From NCBI GenBank assembly GCA_963777505.1, contig CAVZQN010000005.1:1-64000 (forward strand): a stretch of 64,000 bases of DNA, read 5' to 3'. A program made the position numbers and the translations under genes. Positions 1,849-60,045 of this stretch are shown piece after piece. Under the pieces are notes generated by a model that saw only the letters and a program-made list of their open reading frames with translations, was not told where the DNA came from and did no database searches. Positions within the stretch are counted from its first letter, which is position 1. Every line of letters starts with the position of its first letter. Origin of the DNA: an uncultured bacterium. Lineage in GTDB: Bacteria; Acidobacteriota; HRBIN11; JAKEFK01.

Positions 1849-3193
1849 ATGGCAACGACAATTGGCGACACGCAACCGCGCAATATTTCATCGAACAATA
1901 TTCCGGATACGATTGGTGCAGAAACAACGGAAACTACAGCTCCGGCAACGACCGCCGGCTGAACCAAAGGTCGATGCACGACAGGCTGAAGGATCCAAGC
2001 AGCACGCAAACGACAATAAGCCGCAATATGACGTCCGTGCTGGGCAAATTCGGCAACAATTGGATCAGGCTTATAAGAACTCGATGCCCAATACTCCGGA
2101 TACCAGTTTCGGTGCTCCGCAACAGTTCGCGGGGGATGCCAACAAAAATGGTAGCAGCGGCGGTGTTGGCGCTCAAAAAACCGCAGCACCGAAAACGACC
2201 AACGTCGACGTAAAGCAGTCCAACGTTAGCAGCAAGCCGCCCCAGACGTATGACATCACGAAAGTCACGCCTCAACAGATTCAGGAACTGCGCAACAAAA
2301 AGCAGGATCAGCTTGCGAATACGATTGAGAACGCTCAGATCGCCTACGACGATTTCGTGAAAGCGAATCCGGGCGTCAAGGTGATCGTCACCACCAGTGA
2401 AGGGAACGGTGGCAAGCCGGTGCTCGTAGTTAAGGGCGCGGCTGCAGATAAGGACGCGCACGTACATACACACTACCATGGTGACAATGCAACGGTCGGC
2501 GATCCGTTGGGTTCAAAGGCTGGACAGAACGCGCGTATCAGGGACACGCTGAAGAAGGATCCGCACGCCGTATTCGTGCTACCCGAGGCAGCGAACTCGA
2601 CTAAAAAGACTGACTCCTCTTCGAACAACAACTCTTATAGCGTCAGCTGGTCTAACGTGAAGAGCCAGGTGAAGACGACCAACGACGCGCTGGATGCTGC
2701 CGGTGTTCAGAGACCACCAAAGGAAACCGTGGTGTCGTTCCACTCTGGCGGCGGAATGGCACTGGTCAATCTGGTGAACGCGAACAAAGATAAAGGCAAC
2801 GCCACGCTTCAAGCAGACCGTCTGGAACTGTACGATTCGGTCTATCATTTCGGCAAGGAAAACAATCCTGCGTACCACTTCGAAGCACGTCTGCGCGATT
2901 GGAGCCAGACCGATAGCGGCAGGGCAGTCCAACAGGTGGTCTTCTATCGCGGTAGCAATGATATCTCACGCGCCGCGGTCATGGAGAAAGCTGTGGGAAA
3001 GGATAAATTTAAGGTGGTCGACATGTCCAAGCAGCCGCCTGTTGATGATACGATCAATCCACCAGCGGAGAATTCGAACGGCAACTGGACGGAAGTCGTG
3101 CGCAACGGCAAACAGACGGGGAAAGTCGCGCACAATTTCAACCCCGACGCCCATTACCGGACCGTCGGCCAGTTTATGGGAACCCGCCCGTGA
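1849..3193 (+). CDS. Orphan leader-motif protein with C-terminal alpha/beta-hydrolase-like domain; frameshift near 1950
   Basis: GGAGG RBS 1838-1842 then ATG 1849 (MATTIGDTQP...), stop at 1960-1962; continues in the 1862 frame (PPAEPK...). HTHYHG and VSFHSGGG (nucleophile-elbow-like) motifs. Visibly higher GC than flanks. Confidence 0.7.
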
Positions 3194-3289
3194 CGGCGCT
3201 TGATGCCGCTACCATCGCGCGGCGTAACCGCAACTGCAGTGCAGGTGTAGTCGGACTTCACTAAGAACAAGCATAGAGTCGTTTCCGAA

Positions 3290-5944
3290 TCATAGGCCCG
3301 GGACATTTTCTACGCGCACCAAACTGAAGAGGAGTTCCAATTCTGACAGTGTGATGAATTTGCCATCCGGTGAAATCGCAAAAGTTTCCGTTTGTTTAAA
3401 CGGATCGAATCCGGCAATAGCGCGTCGTGTCGCGAATGTGTCTTTACCTGGAATAAAGTCCTGCGCGAAAATTCCAAGATCTCCTTGTTCGTTCGAGTCT
3501 ATGTAAGCAAGTGATTTTCCATCCGGCATCCAGCGACAACGACCTAAGGAACCAGCCAGCGTGTTTTGCTTTTTCGTTCCGCGTTTCGCTTTCGCTTCAA
3601 ACGGAATGGCATTTCCTGTTTCGATGTTGATAACATCGATGTATGCCGTGGGTCCCACTGCAAATTGTTTATACCAGGTGTACGCGATATGTTTGCCATC
3701 CGGTGAAACTTCGGGTTGTTGTGTGAGTCCGCTAAACAATTGTGTCGCTCCGGATCCATCCGGACGAATCTTCCAAATTCCAGTTTTTTTAGTATTGTAG
3801 GATGTGTATACAATCCATTGCTGATCCGGCGTCATCGTTGGATTTTCAGCATCCAATCCATCGTTTGTAATTCTGCGCGAATCGGTGCCATCTGATTTTG
3901 CCATCCAAATTTCAAAATGACCATCACGGTTTGAGCTCCAAAGAATGTGTTTGCCGTCGGGAGTATAAGCGGGATCCCAGTCATCCGCTGCGTCTTCCGT
4001 AATGCGTCTTACGGCGCCGGTTTCAATTGTGAGTTCCACAAGATCAAGATTTCCGCTTCCAATGGAGGAATACAAAATGCTTTTGCCGTCTGGCGAATAG
4101 ACAGGCTGACGATCAATGCTGTTTCCACGCGTGAACCACCAACCGGTTGCTTGCGATTCGTCCAGAGAGACTTGACGCAAGTTTTGTCGCCTGACAGCGG
4201 ATTGGAGCAGTAGCGTGTCCTGATCCAGTCTGTCCAGAACATCACCGCACGATGGAAACCAAAACAGCTTTCGAATCTTTTCGGTATCTATATCTTGAAG
4301 TACGATCGTTCCAGCTCCGCGCGAACTTCCGCTCGCGGCTATTGACCGCGGAACACCGTAAAGAATCTGATTGTTGGAAATCCAGATTGCGGCTGTTGGC
4401 CATGTGGAACGGAGCCAGCGCTTTTCCTTTGTCTTCGTATCTACTATAAGAATGGCATCCAAATTGATAGCATTGCCCGTCCAATTTCTAGTTGCAACGA
4501 TTCGATTACCGTCAGGTGACCAGCGGGGAAATTCAACCTGAATTTTTTCAATACGAGTCACCAGTTCCACTCCAGTTCCATCTACGTTCGCTGTAAATAC
4601 TGATGATTCTCCTGATTTCCACCGTAAGAATGCGATCTGTTTCCCATTAGGAGATAGGTCTGCAGAATGAACATCATCCAATATCTTTCTTTCTTCGCCG
4701 CCAAGAACTGAAATTCTGTAAAGCGAAGTGCCTGCTCCTTGTCTGCGAAGAAAAAAAATCGAAGAGCTATCCGCAGAGAATCTTGGATAGTCATCAGGTC
4801 CAGATGAAAGAACGACTTCGTTGTCGGCTGCTATTTGTTTCAACCAGATCCTGGGAGTTCCATCCCGGTCGGAGCGAAATGCGATCAGTTTACCGTCCGG
4901 CGAAACTGCTGGTGCCGAATCCTTCCCGGTGAAAGTTACCGTGAGCATTTCTAAAAGCTCTTGTGGTTTTGGTCTGAAATACCAGTACGCTGCCGCGACT
5001 CCAGCAAGAAAGGTGATCAAAAACAGTGATAGAAGCCACGGTCGAAAACGTTTGCCTGGTTGCGGCACTGCCGAAAGGGAAACGGAGCCCAAATCAGAAA
5101 TATGATCGCGAATCAATTGAAGATCGCGCGACAGATCCTGCGTGGAAGCGTATCGTTCATCCGGATCTTTAGCCATGCAACGATCCAGAACCCAGCGCAG
5201 AGCCAGCGGTATTTCCGGGTTTAGGGTGTGCACCGGTTCCGGCTCTTCCGTGATAATCGCTGCCATGCTTTCCACACCGGAGTCACGCTGAAAAGCACGT
5301 TTTCCAGTGATCATTTCGTAAAGAATCGTTCCGAATGAAAATTGATCGGCGCGAAAATCAACATCTTTCCCACTCACTTGCTCCGGAGACATATATCCAG
5401 GGGTTCCAACAATCGCGCCTGCTGAAGTCTGTGTCTGTAGATTCGATGCTTGATTTGTTGAAACGACGGTTATTTTTGCAAGTCCGAAATCCAATATTTT
5501 CAGCAAGCCATCTTTGGAGATCATCAGGTTCTCCGGCTTGAGATCGCGATGAACAATCCCGGCAGCGTGCGCTTTGGCGAGACCGTCCGCGAGCTGTGAA
5601 GCGAGGGTCACGATTCTTCGCAAACTTATTGGTCCCGCATCGAGTACAGCACGAAGACTCTTGCCTTCTACGAGCTCCATAGAAAGATAGGAGGTGGTAT
5701 CAGCGACACCTACATTGAAAATGGTAATGATATTGGGATGATTCAGAGCAGAAGCTGAACGCGCTTCCTGTTCGAAACGAGCCAGGCGTTCGCTATTTTC
5801 TGAAAATTCCGCCGGCAAGATTTTCAAAGCAACTTCACGGTCCAATCGCGTGTCACGCGCGCGATAGACTTCACCCATCGCTCCTGCGCCAATCGAGGAA
5901 ATTACTTCATAAGGCCCGATTTTTTTGCCGGGTGAGGTTGCCAT
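3290..5944 (-). CDS. Ser/Thr kinase with TM helix and TolB/PD40 beta-propeller sensor region
   Basis: GAGAMGEVY, HRDLKPEN, DFGLAK, GTPGYMSPEQ; hydrophobic segment; repeated SPDGK/YSPDG units. Confidence 0.95.
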   Translation of the reverse strand: MATSPGKKIGPYEVISSIGAGAMGEVYRARDTRLDREVALKILPAEFSENSERLARFEQEARSASALNHPNIITIFNVGVADTTSYLSMELVEGKSLRAVLDAGPISLRRIVTLASQLADGLAKAHAAGIVHRDLKPENLMISKDGLLKILDFGLAKITVVSTNQASNLQTQTSAGAIVGTPGYMSPEQVSGKDVDFRADQFSFGTILYEMITGKRAFQRDSGVESMAAIITEEPEPVHTLNPEIPLALRWVLDRCMAKDPDERYASTQDLSRDLQLIRDHISDLGSVSLSAVPQPGKRFRPWLLSLFLITFLAGVAAAYWYFRPKPQELLEMLTVTFTGKDSAPAVSPDGKLIAFRSDRDGTPRIWLKQIAADNEVVLSSGPDDYPRFSADSSSIFFLRRQGAGTSLYRISVLGGEERKILDDVHSADLSPNGKQIAFLRWKSGESSVFTANVDGTGVELVTRIEKIQVEFPRWSPDGNRIVATRNWTGNAINLDAILIVDTKTKEKRWLRSTWPTAAIWISNNQILYGVPRSIAASGSSRGAGTIVLQDIDTEKIRKLFWFPSCGDVLDRLDQDTLLLQSAVRRQNLRQVSLDESQATGWWFTRGNSIDRQPVYSPDGKSILYSSIGSGNLDLVELTIETGAVRRITEDAADDWDPAYTPDGKHILWSSNRDGHFEIWMAKSDGTDSRRITNDGLDAENPTMTPDQQWIVYTSYNTKKTGIWKIRPDGSGATQLFSGLTQQPEVSPDGKHIAYTWYKQFAVGPTAYIDVINIETGNAIPFEAKAKRGTKKQNTLAGSLGRCRWMPDGKSLAYIDSNEQGDLGIFAQDFIPGKDTFATRRAIAGFDPFKQTETFAISPDGKFITLSELELLFSLVRVENVPGL

Positions 5945-6091
5945 CGCGACATTATACTACCCGAAAAATTGTCTTCATTTTTGACCCGGCTTTTCCTTTC
6001 GCTCGCTCTAATAGCTTAAGTATCATGCCTGTTGCCTCGCGTGAATCACTCTGTTCCATAATTTTCATCCAAACAAATACACAAGGCAGGC

Positions 6092-6126
6092 TAGCGTTTT
6101 CGCCACAAGATTTCTCTTTTTTGCCA
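6092..6126 (+). promoter_or_regulatory. Candidate tandem upstream activator site for a sigma54 enhancer-binding protein
   Basis: TAGCGTTTTCGCCA-CAAGATT-TCTCTTTTTTGCCA; aligns with 10184-10217 and lies at the same distance from a -24/-12 promoter. Confidence 0.6.
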
Positions 6127-6169
6127 ATTTCTTATGTGTTCATCTTCCGATTCCCGACTGAATGTCATA

Positions 6170-6185
6170 TGGCACATGCATTGCT
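6170..6185 (+). promoter_or_regulatory. Sigma54 (RpoN) -24/-12 promoter
   Basis: TGGCAC-ATGCA-TTGCT, an exact TGGCAC-N5-TTGCW match, just upstream of RBS GGAGG 6201-6205. Confidence 0.85.
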
Positions 6186-6211
6186 CATACGAGAAGTGCA
6201 GGAGGAACATG

Positions 6212-6661
6212 ATGAACACAATTTCGCACGATACTGTTGCAGAAGTTCTTGGTTTGAAGACCCGGCAAATGGCGGCACTGGTGCTTACTGGATATCGACT
6301 CTATCAACAAGGACACACTCAGGATGCTGCAAGAATATTTGAAGGGATTGCAGTTTTAGACAGCAGTAACCCTTACGTTCAAGGTATTCTCGGATCGATT
6401 TACCAAAAGCTGGAGGAATTTGAGCCTGCAATAGTCCGCTATAACAACGCGTTGAGCATTTTCCCCGGTGATATCAATTCGCTTACAAATCGCGGAGAGA
6501 TTTATTTGAAGCTTGGAAGATTTCAAGAAGCAGCGGAAGATTTCAAACATGCGATTCAACTTGATCCGGAACGGCAACATCCTGCTGCAAACCGCGCACG
6601 TCTTCTGATAGCGCTGGTTCAAGATGCTCTTACAGTGGCGAAAAAGAAAGAGCAGCAGTGA
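6212..6661 (+). CDS. Small TPR protein, SycD/LcrH (class II T3SS chaperone)-like
   Basis: ~150 aa with three TPRs (GYRLYQQG...AARIFEG...LD; LGSIYQ; NRGEIYLKLGRFQEA). Start re-called at RBS-supported ATG (6209 or 6212). Confidence 0.75.
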   Translation: MNTISHDTVAEVLGLKTRQMAALVLTGYRLYQQGHTQDAARIFEGIAVLDSSNPYVQGILGSIYQKLEEFEPAIVRYNNALSIFPGDINSLTNRGEIYLKLGRFQEAAEDFKHAIQLDPERQHPAANRARLLIALVQDALTVAKKKEQQ

Positions 6662-6716: not shown

Positions 6717-8314
6717 ATGGAAATTATTGGAAGGAACATACCATCATTTCAGACTGCAATTGCATCGGTAGCTTCAGGAATTCAAGAAAGCACGCAGGTA
6801 AAAGGACTGGCAGCAATCAACAGTGCGTTTGAAACGTTTTCCGCACCAAGTTTTGGCGCTCTCGGTGCTCCGGAGTCATTGACAAGTGTTGCTGATGTTG
6901 CGCAATTTCCAGAGCCCACTCAATATTTTCAAGCGAACTCATCTGCTTCAGCTAATCCCAAATTTGATTCGCGGGAATTTGCAGCCGTCATCAACGACAA
7001 AAATTTTAGTCCGCTAAATGAGCTCTCGCGTTTGGGAGAAAACAGCTTATTTCAACGTGGAATTATCATTGTTGGTGGTAAAAGTTCCAGGCGCCGATAA
7101 TATCGATCATTTAAGCTTTCCGCCGGATCCAATCGTTCCACACCCTCAGCCAGCCAAGCTGACCTCAACAAATTCTGGATCCAATGCGGCATATGCATAC
7201 GGTCCCGAATTGAACGGGAGCGTAAAACCGAATGAAGTAATTCAGGAAGCAATGGAAAAAGGTAAGCAGCCACTTACGCAAAAAGAACCCGAGTATGTCT
7301 ATGCGAATGGCCAACTTCCTGGAGTGAACCCAGAAACCTTTGAGAAGCTTAAAGATTTCTTCAAATCTTATGCAGAAAAGTCAGGTGCTGTATTGGAAGG
7401 ACGAGCCGATCAGACTGAAACAATTAAAAAGGCCTCAGAAAAGGCAGGCAATGCAGGTGTAAACAAAGATTTGCTTGACCAATTTCCGCCAATTCCTTCT
7501 TTAGAAAATCCATTGCTGAATTTAAGAGTGCAAGGGAGTACAGAGCAAAACGGACCAGTGCAGAATGCAATGGAAAAAGCGAAACCTTCATATACTCCAA
7601 AAGAGCCGGAATATCTTTACCCAACACCTCAGGGAATTAAACCTGGCGGCAACTCTCCCGGTGGAGTTCTTAACGAGCACCTTAGCGATCCTAAGTTTGG
7701 AGAGCCAAATCCACTGCTTAATATACCGTTGCAAGGTAGTGCTCAGCAAAATGAAACAGTGCAGGATGCAACGGAAAAAGCGAAACATCCTTTTGAATCA
7801 GGTGAACCGGAATATCTTGATCCGAGACATGAAATACACAAAGCCGGATGGGGAGTACATGTATTCACAGCACGAAATCGATGATTTTTATAAGAAATTC
7901 AATCCGCTCTCTCCTGAAAGGCTTGATGGAATGATGAAGGGAGAACTGCATGACAGCGCCAAACAAAATGAATCAATAGCAAATGAAATGGAAAAAGCAA
8001 AACCTTCCTACGTTCCAAAGGAACCCGAATACTTACAAGGTGACCTGCCACCGGCGAACCATTCTCAAAGTACGTCCGCGAGTGATGCAGATCAGCGAGG
8101 AATCATTATTGTAGGAGGGAAGAGCCAGGGCACATATTTCGAGACAATTGATGACACGCTCGCGAAAATGAATCAGAACCCGCAACCTGAGACGGTTCAG
8201 CTTTATCAGCAGCAAGTTGGCGCATTGCAAGATTTGTCCGCAACAGTTCAGCAGTCGATTCAAATGAATCAACAGCTAACGTCTGCGACATTAATGAGCA
8301 GATTCCGGGTGTGA
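6717..8314 (+). CDS. Orphan repeat protein of ~530 aa, split by two frameshifts (~7081 and ~7826); candidate chaperone client
   Basis: Three overlapping ORFs join into one reading: GIIIVGGK|VPGADN and EPEYLDP|DMKYTK. Four EKAKxxxxxKEPEY repeats, two QRGIIIVGGK motifs, Q-rich helical C-terminus. Confidence 0.7.
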
Positions 8315-8315: not shown

Positions 8316-10151
8316 TTACTTTTTTAAAAGGTTCGTAAGTTTCAATTCGCGGACCAAACGATAAAGATGGGCTGTATGAATTCCAAGTTTTGCTGCAGCT
8401 GAGTTAAAGTTGGAATCGGTCTCTTCAAGAGCTTTTAGAATTAATGCCTTTTTGTGTTCGTTGACAGACTCATGCAGGTTTTTTGCAGTGCTCGAAGAAG
8501 ATTCTTCCACTGCCATCATTGATTCCGGTAGATCTTCGGGAAGAATCATTTCTGTGGAGCCGAGCAGAATGGCGCGTTCGATCACATTTTCCAATTCACG
8601 TACATTCCCCGGCCAGGGATAATGCAGCAAAAGTTGCTGTGCTTCTGGTGAAATCCCGCCAACCTGGCGTGTTAGTTTTTTATTGAATTTTGAAATCAGG
8701 TACCGTGCAAGAAGTAAAATGTCATCTCCAAGTGCGCGCAATGGCGGCATCTTTAATCCAACCACATTGAGCCTGTAATAAAGATCCTGCCGGAATTGTC
8801 CATCTTTTGATGACTTTTCAAGATCTCGATTCGTGGCAGCAAGCAAACGGATGTCAGTTTTAATGGTTCGAGTGCCGCCAACACGTTCAAACTCGCGTTC
8901 CTGCAAAACGCGCAATAATTTTGCCTGAAGATTGGAATTGAGTTCGCCAATTTCATCAAGAAAAAGAGTGCCTCCATCGGCCAGTTCCAGTTTCCCCTGC
9001 TTTTGTGAAATAGCTCCCGTAAAAGCGCCCTTTTCGTGTCCAAATAATTCGCTTTCTATTAACCCTTCCGGAAGGGCAGCACAGTTAATCGCAACAAAGG
9101 GCTGATTCGCTCGCGGACTATTTTCATGAATGGCACGCGCCGCAACTTCCTTTCCTGTTCCACTCTCACCGGTAATCAAAACAGTCGTGTCTGCTGCAGC
9201 GATTTTGCTAATCATATCGATTACTTGTTTCATCGGCTTACTTTCTCCGATGAGCTCTCGCTCCATCCTTAGTTCTCCCACGAGCTGTTTTGTTTTCTCT
9301 TTTAATGCCTGGAGATCTTGAATATTTTTGATCGCCGGTGCGGCAATACCAGCAATTGCAGTGACTATCTGCAAATGGTTTTCATCCAATTGCACAGGAA
9401 TTCCGAAAGTATCCAGATAGAGCACTCCCAATATTTTTTCGAAAAGAACGAAGGGTGCACAAACCACTGATGATAATGGTGCAGCGTTATCGGATAACTG
9501 TAGGTCAGCGAGCAATCCATTTTTCTTTTCAATCACCTGCTCAATAGTTTGTTTATTGATTCGAAATGCTTTCTGTTCTTTTTGCTTTTGTTTCTGGCAC
9601 AACAATTCCAATTCTTCTGAATGATTTTTCTTAAGCAGGATCGCTCCACGCGTGCACGGGAGGTTATCAAATATCAGATCCAATAATTTATTTCCCAATG
9701 AATCCAGATCTTGAATGAAGGCAATCGTATTGCTAATGCTCAGCAACAAGCTGAGTTCTTGTGGACTTCTAACGCGGCTCGGCGTGCTGTCCCATCGAGT
9801 TGTTACGATTGATCTTGCACTGAGCGCTTCATCTGAAAAGGAAAGATCGGCCCGCGCTAACTCTTCATGTTCTACGAACAACAACAAGGATGCACCGAAT
9901 TCAATGCGATCTCCGTGTTGAAGTACTCGATGCCTGACAGGGATACCGTTCAGCAAAACACCATTGGTGCTATTCAAGTCAACCAGGGCATAAGTGTTAC
10001 CTTCTTTCTGAATCGAACAATGTCTGCGGGAAAGACGGAGGTCTGCAATCCTCAGGCGATTCGAACTGTCGCGACCAATCGTGATTTCGTCTTCGTTCAG
10101 TTCAACTGTTGTTCCTTTTAATGGTCCAAGAACAGCATAAAGTGCAGGCAT
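8316..10151 (-). CDS. Sigma54-dependent enhancer-binding protein, FHA-GAF-AAA+-HTH
   Basis: FHA (IGR...SRRH...DLNSTNG), GAF-like middle, [38 protein letters not shown], Fis-type HTH. Confidence 0.96.
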
Positions 10152-10261: not shown

Positions 10262-10277
10262 TGGCTAATCATTTGCT
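10262..10277 (+). promoter_or_regulatory. Sigma54 -24/-12 promoter
   Basis: TGGCTA-ATCAT-TTGCT (GG-N10-GC), ~50 nt upstream of ATG 10327. Confidence 0.75.
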
Positions 10278-10326
10278 ATTTCCTCTTGCGGAAAGAAACC
10301 ACCCATAAGGTTGAGGAGGAGTTACG

Positions 10327-11643
10327 ATGATCCGGAATATTTCAGGAGAGGCATTTAAACAGTCCGAAATTTTGAAACAATCACCCGAACCGCAACCCGA
10401 TCAAGGCGTATTACAACGCAGTGAGAAAGTCGCAATCGAGAATCCTATGATCCAAGCAGCTTCGCAACAAACGGTTTTCCAAAGAAAGAATGAAATCAAT
10501 ATTGCAAGTTCAAATCAATCAAGAATTTTGCATTCAGTTCTGGACAAGATTAAGCCTCAAACCAAACCCGAGATCTCAGTACCTAAAACCCTTCCGGGCG
10601 GCGTTGAAGGAACGGACAAATCAACCGGTGTGGCGACCCAGCAACTGGGTCCTGGCAGCAAAGGCCCTGATGTAGAGAAGCTTCAAAAGGATCTACAACG
10701 CTGGCGTGCAATGAATGGACAGGATTTCTCCGTTCCTGCGATCACCGGTGAATATAACAAAGAAACCCAGGATGCCGTCCGTGAATTTCAAGCTGCCACT
10801 GGATTGACAACCGATGGATTAGCCGGTGAAGCGACATTGGCAAGAATGCGATTAGAAAGCGATAACAAGTTTATCGGTTTGAACAAAGATGTACAAAATG
10901 AAATCCGTGCAACATTCAATGAATCTGTAAACAATCCGGAACTTCGCGAAAAGCAGATAGATCTCCGGATGAAAATGGAAACGGATAGATACTTTTCGAA
11001 ACTAGATCCACTGGTCCAAAAGGACCTTCGTACTACATTTCATGAGTTCAGAAATAACCCGGCAGCAATGGAAAATCTCGTAAACCTATCTTCCAGTCGT
11101 GACTTTGCATTGTATGCAGGTGAGCAGGCACAATTCAAAGCAATTGAAACGTTCAAAAAGAATCCTGGAGATAGTAAACACGTTTCCAATATTAAGGATA
11201 CCCTGGCCGATTTTTACCAGTTGGAGCACTTCCCATCCAGTGTGCGGTACGTGGGTAACTTAAACCCATTTCTTGATGCAATGTTTTCGTACACTGAAAA
11301 TCCAATCGGACGTCAGGGGCTTCTCAACCTGGCCCAAAATCCACGTTTTAACCAACTAGGTGCGTTCCAACAAAATCAATTGATCGAAGATCTCGAAACT
11401 AACCCCAATGATGACAGTCCTGAATTGATGAATGGAGTATTCCTCAGTGGAGCTTATGGAAACATGACACCCCAATTGAAAAATTTCACTTTGAAGACAG
11501 CAGGTGAACTTGCAAGTGATCCAGAACGATTGAGAGCGTTAAACGATTTGTTAAATGATCCAACTTTTGCGAATGCTCCAAAAGAAGATCAACAAGCGCA
11601 GATCAACGCACTTCGTTCGCGGAACAAGGAAATAGAATTTTAA
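10327..11643 (+). CDS. Leader-motif protein with PG_binding_1 domain and ~35 aa helical repeats
   Basis: LGPGSKGPDVEKLQKDL...TGEYNKETQDAVREFQAATGLTTDGLAGEAT is a peptidoglycan-binding domain; GAGGAGG RBS; paralog of 58606-60045. Confidence 0.85.
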   Translation: MIRNISGEAFKQSEILKQSPEPQPDQGVLQRSEKVAIENPMIQAASQQTVFQRKNEINIASSNQSRILHSVLDKIKPQTKPEISVPKTLPGGVEGTDKSTGVATQQLGPGSKGPDVEKLQKDLQRWRAMNGQDFSVPAITGEYNKETQDAVREFQAATGLTTDGLAGEATLARMRLESDNKFIGLNKDVQNEIRATFNESVNNPELREKQIDLRMKMETDRYFSKLDPLVQKDLRTTFHEFRNNPAAMENLVNLSSSRDFALYAGEQAQFKAIETFKKNPGDSKHVSNIKDTLADFYQLEHFPSSVRYVGNLNPFLDAMFSYTENPIGRQGLLNLAQNPRFNQLGAFQQNQLIEDLETNPNDDSPELMNGVFLSGAYGNMTPQLKNFTLKTAGELASDPERLRALNDLLNDPTFANAPKEDQQAQINALRSRNKEIEF

Positions 11644-14600
11644 TTTGTTCGTTGATTGAAGTTCTCAGCTTGCTTTAGCAGCGGTTCATATTCTCTTTTC
11701 AAAAATGGATTCGCTGTTATGGCCTTACTGAGTAGTTGCGATGCTTCTTTCGCGACATCCGATTTGTGATCCTTGCGTGCGGCTAATAATCTCAAAGCTC
11801 CATGAATTGCCATTGTTTCAGGATCCGTGGCAGACAGTTTTGACGCATTCTCGATCGCTTCAAACGCATGAGCGATCGAATCGGCAGCGTTTTGGTTTTG
11901 TGCGATACGCCATTCTGCTTGAAATTTGTGAATAAGCGCAAGATCACGTAACACTTCAATGTTGTCTCTGTTCAATTCATCCGCTTTTCTTGCGTTAGAA
12001 AGTGCGCGATCAAAATTGGATTCGGGCGAACTACCGTTCTGAATTTTCCAGCGCGCTTCCAGTAATTCAACAGCGCTTCTGATTCGAAAAGCCTCGTAGT
12101 GCGACTGATCGATTTTGATGTAAGTGTCCAATTCTTTTCTCGCAGAATTCAACTCTGAAGTTGGGTTTTTTCCAGAATTGAATAAATCCGTCGCAGATAA
12201 GAAGTGCAATGACCCTATACTAATATGAGGAATCGTCAATTCGGAATTGATTCGCAGGGCATTATTGTATGAAGACATCGCATCTGCAAGATCCGATGTT
12301 GGATCAATGCCAAGTCTAATTTTATGCTGAGCTCTTAAAAGAAAAACTGAACCTCTATCATGGTGTGCGAAGGCATTCGTGCTACTAATAACGATGGCAC
12401 GATCGTACTGCTGAATGGACTGTATAAAAGTTGCTGAAGGATCGGTTCCGTGATTCATTTCATATTTTGCAATGTCCAGATAAGCAAGACCCATATTTGC
12501 GGAAACCATAGAAGCATTAGGATTGATCTTCAATCCTGCTTGATAAGACTCAATTGCTTGAAGGAGATCAGGTCGTGGATCTTCTCCGCGCTTCAGCCGG
12601 TATTCACCGATATCGAGATGTGTCAGGCCAAGTAAGTTATAAGCATATTCATCAAGACGAAACGTTGCTAAATTTTTCTCCAAAATTTCTATGACTTTTT
12701 TTAAAGAAGGAATCGGATCTTCACCATGACTTAGCTCATATTCTCCCATCCAGAAGTAAGCGCTTGCTAAATTGATATGAGCATCTGCATACTGTGGATC
12801 GAGTTGAATTGCTTTTTGTGATTCGACAATCGCTTCTTTAAAAGATGCCCGCGGGTCCAGGCTGTTGGCGGTTTCATATTCAGCAAGACGCAAAAATGCA
12901 TGTCCTGCTGTTGCGTGTGGATCCGGAATCCTTGGATTCTTATTGGCCGCTATACGCGCAAGCCTAATCGCTTCGAGAAAAAAAGGCCTGGCATCGCCTG
13001 AAGAGTACAGTTGATTGATGCCGTGCTGAATGTTTATCTCCGATTTATAGAGATAGGATCGTTCTTTGTCAGGTTGAATACGAATTGCTTTATCGCAAAC
13101 ATCCAGCGCAGTTTTTAAAGAAGCTATCTTTTCTCCCTTCTGAGTTTGTACAAAAGAAGTACGGATCCAACGTTCCGCATCTGCAAGGTAAATATCCTGA
13201 TCGCTTCTAGCAATTTCGGAGGCTTGCTTGTATGCATCGCCAGCTGAGCGATAGGCTTTAAGTGCGGCATCGTAATCGCTTCGTTCTACGGCTTCTTGAC
13301 CGATTTCAAAATAAATATCGCCTTGCAGTTTCAAAACTTCGTATGGACGACTGGAGATTTCCAATGCTTGAAGGCTTTTTACAAATGCTTCTTTGTGATT
13401 TTTCTCGTAAAGAAAAATGAGAGCCTCTACATACGCAGGTGATTCGGCATGTTCGCGAGCATTCTTCAGAAGTTGAATCGCGGGCGTACGCAATTTCTCA
13501 TCGGCTTTCTTCTTTGCTGCTACTTGTAATGCTTTAGTCGTAAGACGATCCGCATCGACGAGCGCCTGGCGCCATAGAATTCCTTTGACCTTTCCTAGAG
13601 CATAGGCTGTTGAAGGACTGTGATAGCCCGAGTTCCACGCCTTTTCAAGAAATTCTTGGGCGCGTTCATATTCTTTTAGCATTAAATAACCTTGTCCAAG
13701 TGCATTGTTGCCCGGACCAAAGGCCCACTTTCCGCCCTGAGTTGTTCTCCGTTCGATCTGTTGAAGTCTCTCGCGCGCAAGATCTAATTTTGGTCTTACA
13801 TCATGCAGAGGTGACGTGTAGGCACTTAATAGCATTGTTTCGATATAACGAATTTCTTCGGCAAAATCATTCGCATATTGCGTTTGAATTTTTCCCTTCC
13901 ACTGTGCCAGTAGCAATAAAATAATTAGCCCGACTGTCACAACCAATGCAGCACTTGATATTACAGTTGCAACACGGTTCTTCTTGGCCTTCTTCCAAAT
14001 TCGTGTTGAAAGACTGACAGGACGGGCCGCAATCGGTTCACCATCAAGGTATCTTTCAAGATCATTCGCCAATGCCTTTGCTGATTGATAGCGTGCGAAA
14101 GGTTCTTTTTCTAAACACTTCATGACAATGGTTTCGAGGTCTGGGGAAATTTGCTTTACAATTTTGTGAAGCGAAACGGGATCTGCATTTATGACTTGTA
14201 AAATTACTTCTGGTGTTGTACCAGTGAACGGTGGTTTGTTAGCGATCAATTCATAAAGCGTCGCACCAAGCGAATAAACATCGCTACGCGTATCGATCGG
14301 CTCGCTCTTCGCTTGCTCTGGCGGCATGTAATGTGGAGTGCCGATCACAACTCCTTTCTGAGTAATTCCAGGCGCTGTTTGCATCCGTGCCAAACCAAAA
14401 TCCAGGATGTAAGGCTTCCATGATCCTGACTCAGTTTTTTCGAGCATGATGTTTCCTGGCTTGATGTCACGATGCACAAGCCCTTGTTTATGCGCGGCAT
14501 GAACTGCATCTGAAATTTTTCTCATTACTTCTACTTTTTCAGTAAGATTCATTTCTTGCGCGGCCTCAGCAAGGGTCTGGCCTTCAACATGCTGCATGCA

Positions 14601-15065
14601 GATATATTTCTTACCTTCAACTTCTCCCACCTCGAATACCTTACAAACATTTTCATGTTCAACTCTTGCCTGACTTCGCGCTTCCAACATCAACCTTTCA
14701 CTTTCATCATTCAAAAGCTTTAAAGCTACTGTTCTTCCTAATGTCGGATCGTAACCACGATACACACGCGCCATCCCGCCTCGCCCGATCAATCGCAATT
14801 GAACATAACGGCCGAAAACAGGAATTAAGATTTCATCTATCCGGTCTTCTTTCATAGTTTCAGGGAGTGGCCAATTCTGATCCGCTAGAGTTTTCATTTC
14901 ATCCAACACCTCAGCATTTAGTGAATCCAGATCTGTGTTGGTTAATTTGCCCTGTTTAACCAGAGTTGCGAGGAGATCAGTTGTGTTGGCGGTTGCTAAT
15001 TCGTCAGGATGGAGTAAACCTTTCTTAACCGCTAGTTTAAGAATTTCTTCTTCGACTGAATTCAT
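11640..15065 (-). CDS. Ser/Thr kinase with TM helix and long TPR region
   Basis: GRGGMARVY, HRDIKPGN, DFGLAR, GTPHYMPPEQ; TM segment; TPR-like repeats with GxDP motifs. Confidence 0.95.
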   Translation of the reverse strand: MNSVEEEILKLAVKKGLLHPDELATANTTDLLATLVKQGKLTNTDLDSLNAEVLDEMKTLADQNWPLPETMKEDRIDEILIPVFGRYVQLRLIGRGGMARVYRGYDPTLGRTVALKLLNDESERLMLEARSQARVEHENVCKVFEVGEVEGKKYICMQHVEGQTLAEAAQEMNLTEKVEVMRKISDAVHAAHKQGLVHRDIKPGNIMLEKTESGSWKPYILDFGLARMQTAPGITQKGVVIGTPHYMPPEQAKSEPIDTRSDVYSLGATLYELIANKPPFTGTTPEVILQVINADPVSLHKIVKQISPDLETIVMKCLEKEPFARYQSAKALANDLERYLDGEPIAARPVSLSTRIWKKAKKNRVATVISSAALVVTVGLIILLLLAQWKGKIQTQYANDFAEEIRYIETMLLSAYTSPLHDVRPKLDLARERLQQIERRTTQGGKWAFGPGNNALGQGYLMLKEYERAQEFLEKAWNSGYHSPSTAYALGKVKGILWRQALVDADRLTTKALQVAAKKKADEKLRTPAIQLLKNAREHAESPAYVEALIFLYEKNHKEAFVKSLQALEISSRPYEVLKLQGDIYFEIGQEAVERSDYDAALKAYRSAGDAYKQASEIARSDQDIYLADAERWIRTSFVQTQKGEKIASLKTALDVCDKAIRIQPDKERSYLYKSEINIQHGINQLYSSGDARPFFLEAIRLARIAANKNPRIPDPHATAGHAFLRLAEYETANSLDPRASFKEAIVESQKAIQLDPQYADAHINLASAYFWMGEYELSHGEDPIPSLKKVIEILEKNLATFRLDEYAYNLLGLTHLDIGEYRLKRGEDPRPDLLQAIESYQAGLKINPNASMVSANMGLAYLDIAKYEMNHGTDPSATFIQSIQQYDRAIVISSTNAFAHHDRGSVFLLRAQHKIRLGIDPTSDLADAMSSYNNALRINSELTIPHISIGSLHFLSATDLFNSGKNPTSELNSARKELDTYIKIDQSHYEAFRIRSAVELLEARWKIQNGSSPESNFDRALSNARKADELNRDNIEVLRDLALIHKFQAEWRIAQNQNAADSIAHAFEAIENASKLSATDPETMAIHGALRLLAARKDHKSDVAKEASQLLSKAITANPFLKREYEPLLKQAENFNQRTN

Positions 15066-20200: not shown

Positions 20201-20346
20201 TTCAAGCCCTCCTTTACATTGTGAGCTTGATTATGGTGATTTTTTGATGCTTTGTCCCCGCCTACACAGGTAGGCTTGTATTACAACGATCGGTTATTCA
20301 CGTTCAAACATTGAGTATGCTATCGTAATTGTATAGAGGACAACTG

Positions 20347-47641: not shown

Positions 47642-49945
47642 ATGCCTATAGAAAAAGGTACCTTATTAGGGCCCTACGAAATCTCCTCCTTTATTGGTGG
47701 AGGTGGGATGGGAGACGTCTATCGAGCGATCGATACCCGCCTTGGAAGAGATGTTGCGCTAAAAGTTTTATCGAAACATCTTGCTGAAGACATAAAATTT
47801 GTTGATCGTTTTGAAAAAGAAACTCGCGCACTAGCAGCGCTGTCGCATCAAAACATTCTTTCAATATTTGATGTCGGAAAAGATCAGGATTCTATTTTTG
47901 CGGTAATGGAGTTGCTTGATGGCATGACGCTGCGAGCGCGGATGAATCAAGGCGCACTTGGCTGGGAAAAAGCTCTGGAGATCGCCGTTGAAATCGCCTA
48001 TGGTTTGGTAGCGGCTCATTCAAAAGGAATTGTTCACAGAGATCTGAAGCCGGAAAATATTTATCTGATCACCGATGATCGTGTAAAAATTCTGGATTTC
48101 GGTCTGGCTCAGCTTAGACTTGAAGCGTTTTCTGACGCGGTCTCTCAGTTAAGAACGATCGCGGATGATACAAAACCTGGAATGCTCCTGGGTACGGTTG
48201 GATATATGTCTCCTGAGCAGATAAAAGGTATTGAAGTCGATGCGACTTCAGACATCTTTTCATTTGGCAGTCTTTTTCATGAGATGTTAACAGGGAAGCC
48301 TCCTTTCTTGCGGAATACTCCAGTGGAAACGTTCGCAGCAATTCTTCACGATTCAACGCCAGATCTTGGTACAAATAGTGGTCCGGTGCCAGTAGAGCTT
48401 CAACGTATCATCATGTTCTGCTTAGAAAAAAATCCAGCAGATCGGTTTCAATCAGCGAAAGATCTTTATCTTGCTCTGAAAACAGTTCCACGATCGCCCA
48501 GTCTTCTAACCTCTAACTTTCCGGAATTTGATTTGGTGAAAACCAAACGGCGCCGTTCGAAAAAAAGTGTGGATTCTTTGGCTGTACTTCCATTTTCGAC
48601 AGAGGGATCCAAGCCTGAAATGGAATATCTGGGTGGTGTTGCAGAGACAATTATTAATGCTCTTTCTCAAATTCCAAAGCTCCGAGTTATGGCCTACAGC
48701 ACTGTGTTGCGTTATGCCGGGACGAACGTGGAACCATTGCGGGCAGGAAGAGAATTGAATGTTCGAGCGGTACTAAATGGAAGAGCTGTTAAGCGTGATG
48801 ATGCAGTGGAACTGCAAGTCGAATTAATCGATGTCACGGATGGCGCTTTGCTGTGGGGAGAACATTACAGTGCAGATTTATGCGAAGTTTGTAATCTCGA
48901 AGAAGAAATTGCGAAACAAATCTCGGATAAATTGAAAATTCAGCTCACGCGTTCCGAAGAAAAACGCATGAACCGCAAAATGACTTCAAATAGGAAAGCC
49001 TATGATCTCTATCTGAAAGGAAGATTTTTTTGGAATAAGAGAACGGAAGAAGGGCTCCGGATGGCAAAGGATTATTTTGAACAAGCGATTCTTGAAGATT
49101 CTAATTTTGCATTGGCCTATTCCGGATTGGCTGATAGTTTTTGGATTCTTGGAAGCTATGGCTTTCTGCCGCCGAAGGATTCGTATCCATTAGCAAAACA
49201 ATATGCTTTGCGTGCGTTGGATTTGGAGCCAGGGCTTGCGGAAGCACATTGTTCGCTTGCTGAGTTTTTATTCCGTTACGATTGGAATTTTGTAGAAGCG
49301 GAAAAAGAGTTTGAAATCTCTTTGAAATTAAATCCTGGATATGCAACGGCTCATCACTGGTATGCAGTTTTATTAGCAACTCTTGGAAAATTTCAACAGG
49401 CAGTGGATGAAGTTCATAAAGCCAGGGATCTCGATCCCTTTTCACCGGTGGTTCACTGGACTATGGGTTACATTTATCATTACGCACGTCAATATGATAA
49501 AGCGATTGAACAGTATAGATACACAACGCTTTTAGATCCTTCTTTCATTCGTCCCTCAGTGGATATGGCGCTGGCATTCATAAAAAAATCAATGTTTCAG
49601 GAAGCTCTAGTCGAAATGGATAAATTAATTGCTGCAAAGATTACAACTCCATCGGTACTTGCGACAATTGGTTATACAAATGCAATGGCAGGACGCACTG
49701 AAGAGGCCGAAAAAATTCTTGAAGATTTAAAGAATCCTAATCGATTGCCTTATCGTTCAAACTACAGCGTTGCCGTTGTGTATGTTGGCTTAGGAAGAGT
49801 GGAAGACGCGATTGATTGGCTGGAACGTGCTTACAATGATCGAGAGGATGCAATGACCAGCATTAAGGTGAATCCCCGGCTTGATCCTTTGCGATCCAAC
49901 CCCCGTTTTGAAAGTCTGATGCAGCGAATGAATTTTCCGCAATAG
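47642..49945 (+). CDS. Ser/Thr kinase with TolB-N-like domain and TPR repeats
   Basis: GGGGMGDVY, HRDLKPEN, DFGLA, SLAVLPF, AYDLYLKGRFFWNKR, DPLRSNPRF. Confidence 0.95.
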   Translation: MPIEKGTLLGPYEISSFIGGGGMGDVYRAIDTRLGRDVALKVLSKHLAEDIKFVDRFEKETRALAALSHQNILSIFDVGKDQDSIFAVMELLDGMTLRARMNQGALGWEKALEIAVEIAYGLVAAHSKGIVHRDLKPENIYLITDDRVKILDFGLAQLRLEAFSDAVSQLRTIADDTKPGMLLGTVGYMSPEQIKGIEVDATSDIFSFGSLFHEMLTGKPPFLRNTPVETFAAILHDSTPDLGTNSGPVPVELQRIIMFCLEKNPADRFQSAKDLYLALKTVPRSPSLLTSNFPEFDLVKTKRRRSKKSVDSLAVLPFSTEGSKPEMEYLGGVAETIINALSQIPKLRVMAYSTVLRYAGTNVEPLRAGRELNVRAVLNGRAVKRDDAVELQVELIDVTDGALLWGEHYSADLCEVCNLEEEIAKQISDKLKIQLTRSEEKRMNRKMTSNRKAYDLYLKGRFFWNKRTEEGLRMAKDYFEQAILEDSNFALAYSGLADSFWILGSYGFLPPKDSYPLAKQYALRALDLEPGLAEAHCSLAEFLFRYDWNFVEAEKEFEISLKLNPGYATAHHWYAVLLATLGKFQQAVDEVHKARDLDPFSPVVHWTMGYIYHYARQYDKAIEQYRYTTLLDPSFIRPSVDMALAFIKKSMFQEALVEMDKLIAAKITTPSVLATIGYTNAMAGRTEEAEKILEDLKNPNRLPYRSNYSVAVVYVGLGRVEDAIDWLERAYNDREDAMTSIKVNPRLDPLRSNPRFESLMQRMNFPQ

Positions 49946-56716: not shown

Positions 56717-56847
56717 GATTTCATGACGTTCATTCAATCGGATTAGCCAACTAGCACATAGTATCGTAGCCGCTGCGGATATCACAATATTTCATGAGGG
56801 CTTTTCCCCATAATTGGTGCGTTAGTAAGTGGAGGAAGTTTTGTGAG

Positions 56848-57150
56848 ATGGAATCACTTATGGACATTTATCAAAAACAAAAGCAATACGAGGCGGCCCT
56901 AACACGTTACAACAATACTCTGGAAAAGTTTGCGTATGACACAAATGCTCTCGTGAATCGTGGCGAGACGCTTCTGAGACTTGGCCGATTTCAAGAGGCT
57001 GAAGAAGATTTTCAACAAGCCATTCAGCTCGATCCAAAAGGAAAAGATCCGGCTGGAAATCGTGCCCGTGTGCTCGTAAGCATAGTTCAAGAGGCTATAA
57101 CGCTCGCGAAAGAAGAAGGGATTGAGACCTTAGATCAAGCAAAAAAGTGA
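56848..57150 (+). CDS. Short TPR protein, N-terminally truncated paralog of the 6212-6661 chaperone-like protein
   Basis: NRGETLLRLGRFQEAEEDFQQAIQLDP...PAGNRAR vs NRGEIYLKLGRFQEAAEDFKHAIQLDP...PAANRAR; GGAGG RBS. Confidence 0.8.
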   Translation: MESLMDIYQKQKQYEAALTRYNNTLEKFAYDTNALVNRGETLLRLGRFQEAEEDFQQAIQLDPKGKDPAGNRARVLVSIVQEAITLAKEEGIETLDQAKK

Positions 57151-57154
57151 CTGG

Positions 57155-57755: not shown

Positions 57756-57756
57756 G

Positions 57757-58134: not shown

Positions 58135-58144
58135 ATAATTATCC

Positions 58145-58423
58145 TCACTTTTTCACTCGATATTTTTGTGGTTTTGAAGAAGTACGTTCGATTATTTTTC
58201 TGGCCTCCAAATCAAGTTTGACTGTTTCTGCATACCAGCTAATATTTTGCTCGAACGTTTCTTTCAAATCCTTGTTGATCCTCTTCATGAGTTCTGTATG
58301 AGTCAAATCTTCTTTTCTCAACGTCTTTAAAATGGCTTTTTTCATCGTTTCATAATTTTTGACACTGATGTTTCGTCCCGTTTTACCCTGAGGGTGTTTT
58401 GTTAATATTTTTTCTTCTGCCAT
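58145..58423 (-). CDS. Small conserved hypothetical protein (DUF6958-like)
   Basis: HPQGKTG, SWY..TVKLDLEAR; GAGG RBS. Confidence 0.8.
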   Translation of the reverse strand: MAEEKILTKHPQGKTGRNISVKNYETMKKAILKTLRKEDLTHTELMKRINKDLKETFEQNISWYAETVKLDLEARKIIERTSSKPQKYRVKK

Positions 58424-58467
58424 GTTATTTCCTCATGCTTTCGTTGAGTTTTTTAAGCCCTCAATAA

Positions 58468-58496
58468 TAGTCGTCTGAGGGAGCTCGAAATCGACA
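58468..58496 (-). promoter_or_regulatory. ECF42-type promoter
   Basis: TGTCGA-TTTCGAGCTCCCTCAGA-CGACTA upstream of the hypothetical-VOC-RibD operon. Confidence 0.75.
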
Positions 58497-58605
58497 AAGT
58501 TGAATTAGAAGAGAACTAAAAAAGGATGGACTATTTAATTATAGGCGCTAATGTGGTTGCGGATCGCTTCAATCGTTTGATCTTAGCATGCTTACACTGC
58601 TGAGA

Positions 58606-60045
58606 TCAGCGAATGCTTTCGTCGACCTTCATGATGGTCTGTCTTGCCGAGCGTTTATCGTCACGAAATTTTGCGGAGTTGGCGAGTTCCGCTAAGGCTT
58701 CTGCGAGTTGAACATTATCAGGGCGAAGAGCTAACGCATTCAACATATCCTGGCGAATGCTTTCATTGAGTTTTTCAAACCCGGGCGCTGATGCAAGTTT
58801 CATCAAATTATTTATTTTGACGGAGTCCAGTTTTACATCTTGAAACATGTGAGGAACACTTGTGAGAATCTGATCCCGAACGCCAAGTGAAACGTCCTGG
58901 AGTTTGGGCGTCATCATCAATTCCATTAAATTATCAACGGCTCCAAAGTCTCGCGGCGGATAGTTGCGTACATGATTCAACATTTCCTCTTGCAACGGTT
59001 GCGGCATGTTGCGGAAGTTCTGACTGTTTGTAGCGTGACGTAAAGTGTCGCCAAGTACAGCATTATCCGGGTTCTGAATGTGAGAACGAATTAGAAAATC
59101 GCGAGTCTTTTTCGGAAGTTCAGCAAACTTCTGCGTTTCAGTAATTAAGTCTTCAAGATTTTCGATTTTGTTAGAATTGCCGCCGTAGCGTTCAAAGCGT
59201 TTCAACAATAAATCCTGTGTAGGTGGATCTAAGTCGCGGAAGTTCGGACTTCCAGCAATCTGAAGCAAATTATTTCCAACAGTCGAATCCCCTGGACGCG
59301 CCGCGAGAATTTTTAACATATGATCCTTGCTCTGCGGCGATAGACGATCAAAACCTGGTTCTGCAACAAGGTTTTTCAGAAGAGTAACGTTACCAGCCGT
59401 TGATGGACTTCCTGCATAACTCAAAACCTGATTTAGCATTTTTGTTTGTCCTGGCTCACCAAGACTTTTGAAGCCAGAACTACGAAGCAATTCGATGACA
59501 TTATTATTAAGTGCGGTATTTTTAGGTTGCTTACCTAAAATATCAAGCGCAAGCGTTAATCGTTTTTGAGTTTCAATGCCGGCTTTTCCATCTGGATTCA
59601 GACCTGTAGCACCCTGGAACTTTTCGATCGCCTCTTTTGTGTCTTGATCCATAGTCCCGCTGGTATTGATTGCACCTTGACCGTTTTCCATTCGCCATTT
59701 ATTCAAGGATTCCTGCAGCGATTTAATCTCAGCAGGTGTTGAGGGTATCTTGATTGCCCCAACTTGTGTATTTGCCGGAGCCGCAAAAACAGAATTTGAA
59801 GATGCCGAAAATTGAATGCTCCTCAGGTTCATCTCTTGAACCTGACCTCTGATTTTCATTTCTGAAACTTTTGCTGTGCTTGAACTCTTTTCTGTCCTTG
59901 GGTTTCCATCTGATGGTGTGCCGGTTTCTTTCGGTTGCGGCGATGGTTCTTCTTTTTGAACAGCAGGCGCTTCGATTTCGGCAGACTGTGGCACCGTCTG
60001 TAATCCAATAGAAGAACCGCCGATTTTAGGATCTCCAATACCCAT
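58606..60045 (-). CDS. Leader-motif protein with PG_binding_1 domain and ~35 aa helical repeats
   Basis: GGAGGA RBS then MGIGDPKIGG; IKSLQESLNKW...SGTMDQDTKEAIEKFQGATGLNPDGKAG; F..L....Q..L repeats. Confidence 0.85.
   Translation of the reverse strand: MGIGDPKIGGSSIGLQTVPQSAEIEAPAVQKEEPSPQPKETGTPSDGNPRTEKSSSTAKVSEMKIRGQVQEMNLRSIQFSASSNSVFAAPANTQVGAIKIPSTPAEIKSLQESLNKWRMENGQGAINTSGTMDQDTKEAIEKFQGATGLNPDGKAGIETQKRLTLALDILGKQPKNTALNNNVIELLRSSGFKSLGEPGQTKMLNQVLSYAGSPSTAGNVTLLKNLVAEPGFDRLSPQSKDHMLKILAARPGDSTVGNNLLQIAGSPNFRDLDPPTQDLLLKRFERYGGNSNKIENLEDLITETQKFAELPKKTRDFLIRSHIQNPDNAVLGDTLRHATNSQNFRNMPQPLQEEMLNHVRNYPPRDFGAVDNLMELMMTPKLQDVSLGVRDQILTSVPHMFQDVKLDSVKINNLMKLASAPGFEKLNESIRQDMLNALALRPDNVQLAEALAELANSAKFRDDKRSARQTIMKVDESIR

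Follow-up and report, generated by a model that had tools for sequence, protein, structure and literature searches.

A modular N-terminal leader on unrelated proteins of an uncultured Acidobacteriota-affiliated lineage: a candidate signal for type III secretion

Background

In Salmonella, effectors of pathogenicity island 2 (SPI-2), among them SifA, SseJ, SspH2 and SseI, reportedly share an N-terminal translocation domain with the motif WEK(I/M)xxFF, which Miao and Miller are said to have described in 2000. The shared region has about 100 residues, directs type III translocation and stands on otherwise unrelated, dispersed proteins; the pattern has been explained by the joining of one N-terminus to new C-termini, 'terminal reassortment'. 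Here, we describe a comparable arrangement in the first 64 kb of contig C5 (the window) of G000, the genome of an uncultured bacterium of soil type: seven dispersed genes of the window encode proteins that begin with the same leader of about 75 residues, followed by mostly unrelated cargo. The SPI-2 domain is probably the closest formal analogue, but there is no sequence similarity between the two: the conserved element of the leader is a single helix after a disordered stretch, its cargo is largely peptidoglycan-directed, its host is affiliated with the Acidobacteriota and its secretion is putative.

Substrates of type III secretion systems (T3SSs) typically have a disordered N-terminal signal and, after it, a chaperone-binding region. 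The leader proteins likewise begin with a disordered stretch, in which Ser, Thr and Pro are frequent and Leu is rare, and have a conserved segment within the first 50-80 residues. For type III signals a sequence consensus is normally lacking, and the T3SS effectors of uncultured bacteria therefore cannot be listed from sequence; the leader, unlike these classical signals, is recognisable by a profile. Other effector classes do have marker domains: MIX and FIX for the type VI secretion system (T6SS), LXG for the type VII secretion system (T7SS) and N-terminal packaging signals for extracellular contractile injection systems (eCIS) and Photorhabdus virulence cassettes (PVC). Like these, the leader is an N-terminal tag on polymorphic cargo and usable for effector mining.

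We know of no substrates or signal of the T3SS* of Myxococcus xanthus. This 'needleless' T3SS* is used in contact-dependent prey killing (PMC12075869). It is a suggestive parallel, a soil bacterium with a non-flagellar T3SS-like machine and bacterial envelopes as its target, which would fit the peptidoglycan-directed cargo of the leader proteins; the system described here belongs to a different phylum. Among the papers listed by a literature search for type III effectors of Acidobacteria, none deals with such lineages by title or abstract.

The G000 assembly has 5.23 Mb in 14 contigs, 44-47% GC and a completeness of 95.86%. Its 16S is 96.1%, 94.0% and 92.5% identical to that of three public records of metagenome-assembled genomes (MAGs) and ~84% identical to that of Thermoanaerobaculia and Holophagales MAGs; these identities place the organism in a deep, uncultured lineage affiliated with the Acidobacteriota. 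For comparison we used G001, which belongs to the same genus (g1), G003 and G005 from a second genus of the family (g3), and the relatives G002 and G004, which have no leader. An earlier reading of the window, made without database searches (the sequence-only reading), had taken the seven proteins as substrates of an undescribed T3SS-like secretion system.

Results

A leader family with a fixed N-terminal position

All seven genes and their motifs are located where the sequence-only reading had placed them (Table 1). The aligned leaders start with M-[VI]-[RK]-P-[VI]-x-G, a conserved beginning that the earlier reading did not include, continue with about 45 disordered residues and end with the helix K-x-A-E-H-S-[ML]-x-G-Q-A-R-A-A-[QE]-L-x-S-Q-L. 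As a control for chance, a hidden Markov model (HMM) of eight motif copies was run against the 63,017 six-frame open reading frames (ORFs) of G000 with at least 40 codons: 11 ORFs matched at E<0.1, namely the seven training loci and four new ones, compared with none in the reversed and none in the shuffled sequences. Two rounds of iteration brought the motif model to at least 15 loci in G000 at E<1 (reversed 0, shuffled 1), and a leader model with 78 positions, made from 31 leaders, matches up to nine further loci with E<0.06 (best reversed match: E 3.1). Judged from these profiles, the family has at least 15 and possibly about 24 genes in G000.

No positional constraint was imposed in the motif searches. 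In all 13 intact G000 members the motif starts 45-61 residues from the Met, and the conserved Glu is found at residue 48-66 in 31/31 aligned leaders from four genomes, so the fixed position first noticed in the window extends to the family. Each new match has a GGAGG-type ribosome-binding site before its Met; the same is true for all seven window genes, 5-9 nt before the proposed ATG. Gene 60045 has a second possible start at 60051, but its ribosome-binding site fits 60045, which is therefore favoured. When window genes were scored with the 31-row leader profile by leave-one-out (for 20200, its ortholog was also omitted), 36255 was recovered with E 8e-9, 60045 with E 1.5e-3 and 24310 marginally (E 0.059). 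The motif segment of 15894, which was never in the model, still scores with this profile (E 3e-4) and with an earlier leader profile (E 4.2e-5).

Three of the seven window genes are frameshifted. The break separates leader and motif in 1849 and 15894, and motif and cargo in 20200. The joins across such breaks, assumed in the sequence-only reading, are justified because G001 has uninterrupted, single-frame orthologs of 1849 and 20200 (81-83% DNA identity) with a net difference of a single base. For 1849, this difference of 1 nt is near 1950, outside a long homopolymer, and the G001 ortholog has leader and motif in a single open frame and keeps the same weak motif. In 20200, which begins with MVRPAGN and thus resembles the consensus start, a 1-nt insertion near 19724 (again outside a long homopolymer) puts the DUF218 cargo out of frame with leader and motif; in G001, the ortholog has a single open frame of 409 codons from stop to stop (~392 amino acids from the Met), and its DNA is 81% identical. 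For 15894, G001 holds distant paralogs only.

We considered the frameshifts as decay after loss of a T3SS but do not rely on this: assembly indels or general turnover explain them equally, and the reading was set aside because G001, which has a T3SS, also has broken leader genes (L035, L038) and a split sctJ. The latter consists of two overlapping ORFs (L104 8114-8957; G001:C3 ~102.1-103.0 kb) and is a single ORF of 285 codons in G003. The split is caused either by indel errors in assemblies of few contigs or by a broken gene, and arguments from frameshifts are weakened accordingly.

Composition, structure and promoters of the leader

Composition and hydropathy of 31 leaders were compared with those of 1,247 control N-termini. 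Residues 2-45 of the leaders are enriched in Ser (1.8x), Thr (1.9x), Pro (2.4x) and Gln (1.9x), depleted in Leu (0.19x) and Phe (0.14x), and free of Cys. Whereas 38% of the controls have a hydrophobic segment within the first 60 residues (12-residue Kyte-Doolittle window of at least 2.0), none of the 31 leaders does (the maximum is 1.90), which agrees with the earlier statement that Sec and Tat signal peptides are lacking. The conserved helix is at residues ~48-80. In the AlphaFold2 model of P0005 (405 residues), pLDDT is below 50 over residues 1-97, where a helix at 60-70, within the motif, is the sole secondary-structure element; the cargo is modelled with good confidence. In its disordered N-terminus, in the abundance of Ser, Thr and Pro and scarcity of Leu, and in having no hydrophobic signal, the leader resembles T3SS substrates.

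A sigma-28-like -10 element, [GC]CGATAA, is present 50-90 nt upstream of 7 of 34 leader genes and of 29 of 1,247 controls (2.3%), but this is a post hoc pattern in which orthologs are double-counted; examples are G000 C4:364607, C7:66640 and C7:84447 as well as L022, L032, L038, L039 and L047. A sigma-54-like pattern is found upstream of 3/34 leader genes and 32/1,247 controls (p 0.06). In an unbiased 7-mer scan upstream of leader genes, the best 7-mer would not survive correction for multiple testing.

The leader is restricted to two genera

Among the 41 nearest genomes, the earlier leader profile finds the leader in four, with 14 matches in G000, 13 in G001, 10 in G003 and one in G005; the other 37 have none. 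A larger profile, searched across the phylum in 301 genomes, is positive in the same four (16, 15, 9 and 2 matches, respectively) and in none of the other 297; only the negatives of this count are informative, because the four positive genomes supplied training rows. The leader is restricted to the two genera g1 and g3.

A protein library of 1,835,955,588 representative proteins has 41 matches at E<=1e-3. In 36, the match starts within the first 8 residues of an independently called protein; four others are N-terminal and in register (partial matches or over-long gene calls), and the one internal match, in P0041, is an internal repeat of another kind. Leader residues 1-85 gave no usable match in the ESM Atlas, and no model of Pfam (50 leader proteins) or NCBIfam (window proteins) covers the leader. 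It is a real, modular and lineage-restricted N-terminal module with a fixed position.

The cargo

The cargo survey covered 50 leader proteins, including some near-duplicates; 40 were library proteins and ten came from G000. Pfam identifies PG_binding_1 in eight, Annexin, SLT, Hydrolase_4 and PG_binding_3 in two each, and Glucosaminidase, Tse3_N, other alpha/beta hydrolases and a gp19-like fragment (P0026) in one each. Within the window, the Pfam scan agrees with most of the cargo named in the sequence-only reading: peptidoglycan binding in 10327 and 60045 (PG_binding_1), a lytic transglycosylase in 36255 (SLT) and DUF218 (19021-19731). Genes 10327 and 60045 are also the paralog pair that had been noticed; they are distant paralogs with a BLASTP E of 5e-12. 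The cargo of 1849, however, had been called hydrolase-like and has no match in Pfam or NCBIfam, and no family of either database matches the cargo of 15894 or 24310.

In the PG_binding group, the C-terminal domain contains an invariant Gln, Cys and His, is modelled with a pLDDT of 81 and is weakly similar to calpain cores (Foldseek E 1.7e-3, TM 0.45). From this model we read it as a probable papain-like cysteine peptidase; a PDB sequence search with the profile of the domain found nothing. The fold of the cargo of P0005 (residues 100-405; P0005 corresponds to G000 C4:364607-365821) is predicted with fair confidence. Its best Foldseek match in the PDB is the catalytic domain of the Salmonella effector SseI, which is not significant (E 0.077), and a conserved Cys (VDCEGYA) hints at a Cys-dependent enzyme.

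The 36255 protein has a tandem duplication of a module of ~115 residues (residues ~53-170 and 171-290) and the helix motif starts each copy. The internal motif that had been seen in this protein belongs to the second copy and is the sole internal occurrence in the genome. Beyond the SLT domain, no ortholog of 36255 was found in 40 relatives, G001 included, and the SLT protein found no relative in the genome contig collection. The cargo family of C7:82312-84486, a large PG_binding/peptidase protein, was not found in the leader-less G002, G004, G007, G008 and G010 in a search without a positive control. The cargo of the leader appears to evolve fast.

Some members are very short (~90-120 residues) and consist of the leader and a short tail: G000 C6:397737-398042, P0009, P0019, P0044, P0018, P0043, P0031 and P0037. 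The tails are conserved, with ...[LV]PEV[DN]D[EQ]VL, ...IIAILIG and ...PRMKWEV... as examples. A VgrG- or tube-like link, considered from the ...PEV[DN]DEVL tails and the gp19-like P0026, was rejected, with no tube in the family and a sheath hit in G001 only; no tail genes are found near C6:397737-398111.

Secretion systems of the lineage

Of 13 genomes of the class, 11 have FHIPEP (SctV), G001, G003 and G005 among them; the two without it are G000 and G006, the latter with a completeness of 73%. SctV is thus found in all three other leader-bearing genomes, and so it is in eight genomes of the class that have no leader. The non-flagellar T3SS island of G001 encodes SctR, SctN and SctL above the NCBIfam cut-offs and SctU and an FHA-fused SctQ just under them; SctV, a short SctJ, a ruler-like protein and a FliA-like sigma factor are further parts. 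The island is syntenic in G002 and G003. Because relatives carry this ordinary non-flagellar T3SS island, the undescribed secretion system of the sequence-only reading is not needed.

In G001, uvrB and uvrC are adjacent (C3:52855-56727) and lie ~25 kb from the T3SS island. Neither gene was found anywhere in G000, whereas UvrB is present in all four family relatives tested. Probably, at least 120 kb of chromosome that are present in G001 are missing from the G000 assembly.

T6SS and contractile injection systems of the eCIS/PVC type were considered as the route and rejected. TssC/VipB (PF05943) is found in none of 21 genomes, including G000, G001, G003 and G005, and the gp19-type tube (PF06841) in none of seven genomes of the family; the sheath (PF04984) is, within the family, found in G001 only and not in G000. 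In total, PF06841 and PF04984 are found in 2/41 genomes each, including the unpublished genome G035. In this respect the leader differs from the N-terminal tags of T6SS and eCIS.

Chaperone-like TPR genes and their neighbours

A tetratricopeptide repeat (TPR) chaperone had been raised as a partner of the motif, and the window does contain a SycD/LcrH-like TPR gene, 6209-6661, which matches TIGR02552 with E 4.6e-17 over model positions 5-128 of 136. It resembles SycD, LcrH and IpgC in its size of ~150 amino acids with three TPRs, in having paralogs inside T3SS islands and in the pairing of its copies with a neighbour gene. Paralogs inside T3SS islands are found in G001 (C3:86.6 kb and 91.4 kb), in G003 (three on contig C187) and in G005 (two beside SctV); the window copy is away from apparatus genes and has its partner gene downstream.

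Strong TPR paralogs (E<1e-25) number five in G000, four in G001, eight in G003 and seven in G005, compared with one each in the leader-less G002 and G004. At 5 of these 24 strong loci of the leader-bearing genomes (three in G000 and one each in G001 and G005, at non-orthologous places) there is a leader gene within 5 kb; the chance expectation is roughly 3% per TPR locus by our own arithmetic, which is no formal test; moreover, the leader genes occur in clusters. A complex prediction with the window TPR protein (10-row alignment) and leader residues 44-79 (31-row alignment) gave an ipSAE of 0.03 twice, against a mark of 0.32 and with no control pairs, and has no bearing either way.

Each TPR copy of G000 is paired with a neighbour gene of 190-350 codons (C7:84728-85324, C7:118172-118735, C7:165464-166030 and C8:7599-8666). 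In G005, the genes 5112-6458 and 6926-7183 of L117 (G005:C542) have a similar N-terminus beside a TPR gene. The N-termini of these neighbours resemble each other (MEIIGRNIPSFQTAIASVASGIQEST..., MEEKMEIIGRSIAHLQNQFVSGLEAV..., ...IQTVASGISSAAKSQ...) and the leader is absent from them; the window partner, 6717-8314, has no family match in Pfam or NCBIfam. Going by this pairing, the neighbours may be a second family of candidate substrates, cognate clients of the chaperones and possibly translocator-like.

Discussion

The explanation that we favour, and to which we give about an even chance, is that the leader targets proteins to the non-flagellar T3SS of the lineage, with its helix docking to a shared component; we infer both the T3SS route and the docking. 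One modular leader of ~75 residues would be joined to many unrelated cargo domains, its disordered N-terminus would be the export signal, and its amphipathic conserved helix would be the docking site for a shared component, which could be a multi-cargo chaperone, a sorting platform or the export gate. The cargo, with its peptidoglycan-binding and papain/calpain-like peptidase, lytic transglycosylase, alpha/beta hydrolase, annexin and DUF218 domains, would be an effector arsenal against the envelopes or membranes of other cells. The proposal of the sequence-only reading that the seven proteins are T3SS substrates therefore stands in part: the signal-like module, the lack of signal peptides, the T3SS of the lineage and the TPR chaperone gene of the window support it, whereas no sctV was found in the G000 assembly and the leader is narrower in distribution than the T3SS.

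Several observations weigh against a T3SS route. Profile searches found neither SctV/FlhA (PF00771) nor SctU/FlhB (PF01312) in G000, and G000 has no ortholog of any ORF from the 120 kb around the T3SS island of G001. Taken at face value, the missing export apparatus contradicts the T3SS claim, but it is an unreliable negative: since uvrB and uvrC are missing too, an assembly gap is the simplest reading and the absence of a T3SS from G000 is uninformative. The leader is absent from G002, G004 and six other genomes of the class that have SctV; it is therefore a lineage-specific module and neither a general type III signal nor required for type III export. The T3SS islands examined contain no leader gene, and the signals from promoter motifs upstream of leader genes are weak and post hoc. 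Injected effectors do not usually carry peptidoglycan-binding or lytic transglycosylase domains, although there are precedents in the export of FlgJ via the flagellar T3SS and in secreted, T3SS-associated lytic transglycosylases. The window TPR protein scores 62 bits, under the curated TIGR02552 cut-off of 104.8, and in this, as in the 4-8 dispersed copies per leader-bearing genome, it is unlike SycD, LcrH and IpgC; a PDB sequence search with the TPR profile returned generic TPR proteins only. Finally, leave-one-out scoring misses three of the seven window genes: 20200 has E 200, and 10327 and 1849 have no match. Of the two weakest fits named in the sequence-only reading, 1849 is thus weak indeed and 60045 is not, the weak members being 1849, 10327 and 20200. 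These three are best seen as diverged copies, going by their sequences; 10327 is a paralog of well-scoring members.

In a more far-reaching version, which we consider rather unlikely, the leader would be the sequence-readable address tag of a bacterial-killing route, either a T3SS repurposed as in Myxococcus, which would deliver hydrolases, lipases and proteases into neighbours, or an undescribed machine. If so, the complete arsenal of this uncultured, predator-like lineage could be read from sequence with a single profile.

A route independent of the T3SS is unlikely as well, and slightly more so: the leader would serve a different, undescribed exporter, for example a lineage-specific envelope-spanning one, or the loading of vesicles, through which enzymes active on cell walls would be delivered. 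Its narrow distribution (g1 and g3) in comparison with the T3SS would fit such a route, as would the cargo, which is mostly peptidoglycan-directed and lipase-like and in this typical of antibacterial effectors, the many intact leader genes with strong ribosome-binding sites in a genome without T3SS core genes, and the position of the leader outside all Pfam and NCBIfam models. There is, however, no candidate apparatus: T6SS and eCIS-type tube were not found, the sheath is confined to G001, and the window has no secretion genes apart from the TPR chaperone paralogs. The T3SS gap of G000 is best explained by the assembly, and leader genes recur beside T3SS-type chaperone paralogs.

More doubtful still is that the leader has nothing to do with export and is a functional or regulatory module spread by recombination, such as a degron, an autoinhibitory pro-region or a domain for localisation or interaction after delivery. 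Host targeting can be the role of an N-terminal module in known T3SS effectors; an example is the lipid-raft-targeting motif of BteA, which is cited in PMC3417404. The helix motif occurs once internally, in the duplicated module of 36255, and several members of only ~100 amino acids have the leader and a short conserved tail, which is not obvious cargo. In 40 of the 41 library proteins, however, the leader stands at the very N-terminus; it is predicted to be disordered and is attached to domains of extracytoplasmic type (PG_binding, SLT) that have no other export signal; moreover, a role after delivery would itself need an export route. That the motif is a chance resemblance of low-complexity, helical N-termini is hardly credible and already refuted for the family as a whole: three window genes are missed by the leave-one-out profile, but reversed and shuffled sequences gave no match at E<0.1 against 11 real ones, new members are all N-terminal, and the leader recurs in G001, G003 and G005 on orthologous and non-orthologous proteins alike, with no occurrence in the 297 other genomes.

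A profile of ~75 residues picks ~15-24 candidate substrates per genome and has no match in the other 297 genomes sampled from the phylum. If the leader does address proteins to the T3SS, the profile provides a ready effector catalogue for an environmental, Acidobacteriota-affiliated lineage and a defined peptide for finding the docking partner, and the peptidoglycan-directed cargo would suggest that the targets of this T3SS are bacteria and not eukaryotes. Otherwise, the leader would mark an export route that has not yet been described.

Features of the window

The leader genes are listed in Table 1 together with the TPR genes and the partner gene.

Table 1. Leader genes and TPR-associated genes of the 64-kb window
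Feature	Position	Strand	Details
Leader gene, cargo without family match	1849-3193	+	Leader in frame 1 (1849 to ~1950); motif (2003-2062) and cargo in the frame of ORF 1862-3193; weak member
Three-TPR protein, candidate class II (SycD/LcrH-like) T3SS chaperone	6209-6661	+	150 residues; best NCBIfam match TIGR02552
Partner gene after the TPR gene	6717-8314	+	Three frames (two frameshifts); starts with MEIIGRNIPSFQ; internal repeats
Leader gene, PG_binding_1 and helical repeats	10327-11643	+	Motif 10483-10542; divergent leader
Leader gene, cargo without family match	15894-16966	+	Frameshift between 16007 and 16045; motif 16046-16105
Leader gene, DUF218 cargo	19021-20200	-	Leader and motif (20044-19985) in ORF 20200-19718; cargo in ORF 19731-19021
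Leader gene, coiled-coil-like tail	23741-24310	-	189 amino acids; motif 24169-24110
Leader gene, SLT lytic transglycosylase	34600-36255	-	Motif 36099-36040; second, internal copy 35745-35686
Truncated TPR chaperone paralog	56794-57150	+	E 5e-28, query positions 61-147; 1.5 kb from leader gene 60045
Leader gene, PG_binding_1 and helical repeats	58606-60051	-	Motif 59871-59812; start 60045 (GGAGG 7 nt upstream) or 60051

Family scans of the window ORFs found no secretion genes apart from the TPR chaperone paralogs; the rest of the window encodes Ser/Thr kinases, regulators, a resistance-nodulation-division (RND) pump and metabolic genes. At 20329-21085 (+), ORFs of 129 and 154 codons overlap in different frames and look like one further frameshifted gene, which has no relation to the leader family. 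A sigma-54 activator with FHA and GAF domains (8316-10151, minus strand) is divergent from leader gene 10327, and a sigma-54-like -24/-12 pattern with correct spacing, TGGCTA-N5-TTGCT, is found at 10270-10285, 49 nt before the ATG of 10327. The four Ser/Thr protein kinases (3290-5944, 11640-15065, 21914-23068 and 47642-49945) are fused to PD40 beta-propeller or TPR regions. With a further, PP2C-like gene at 827-1666, the region is rich in signalling genes.

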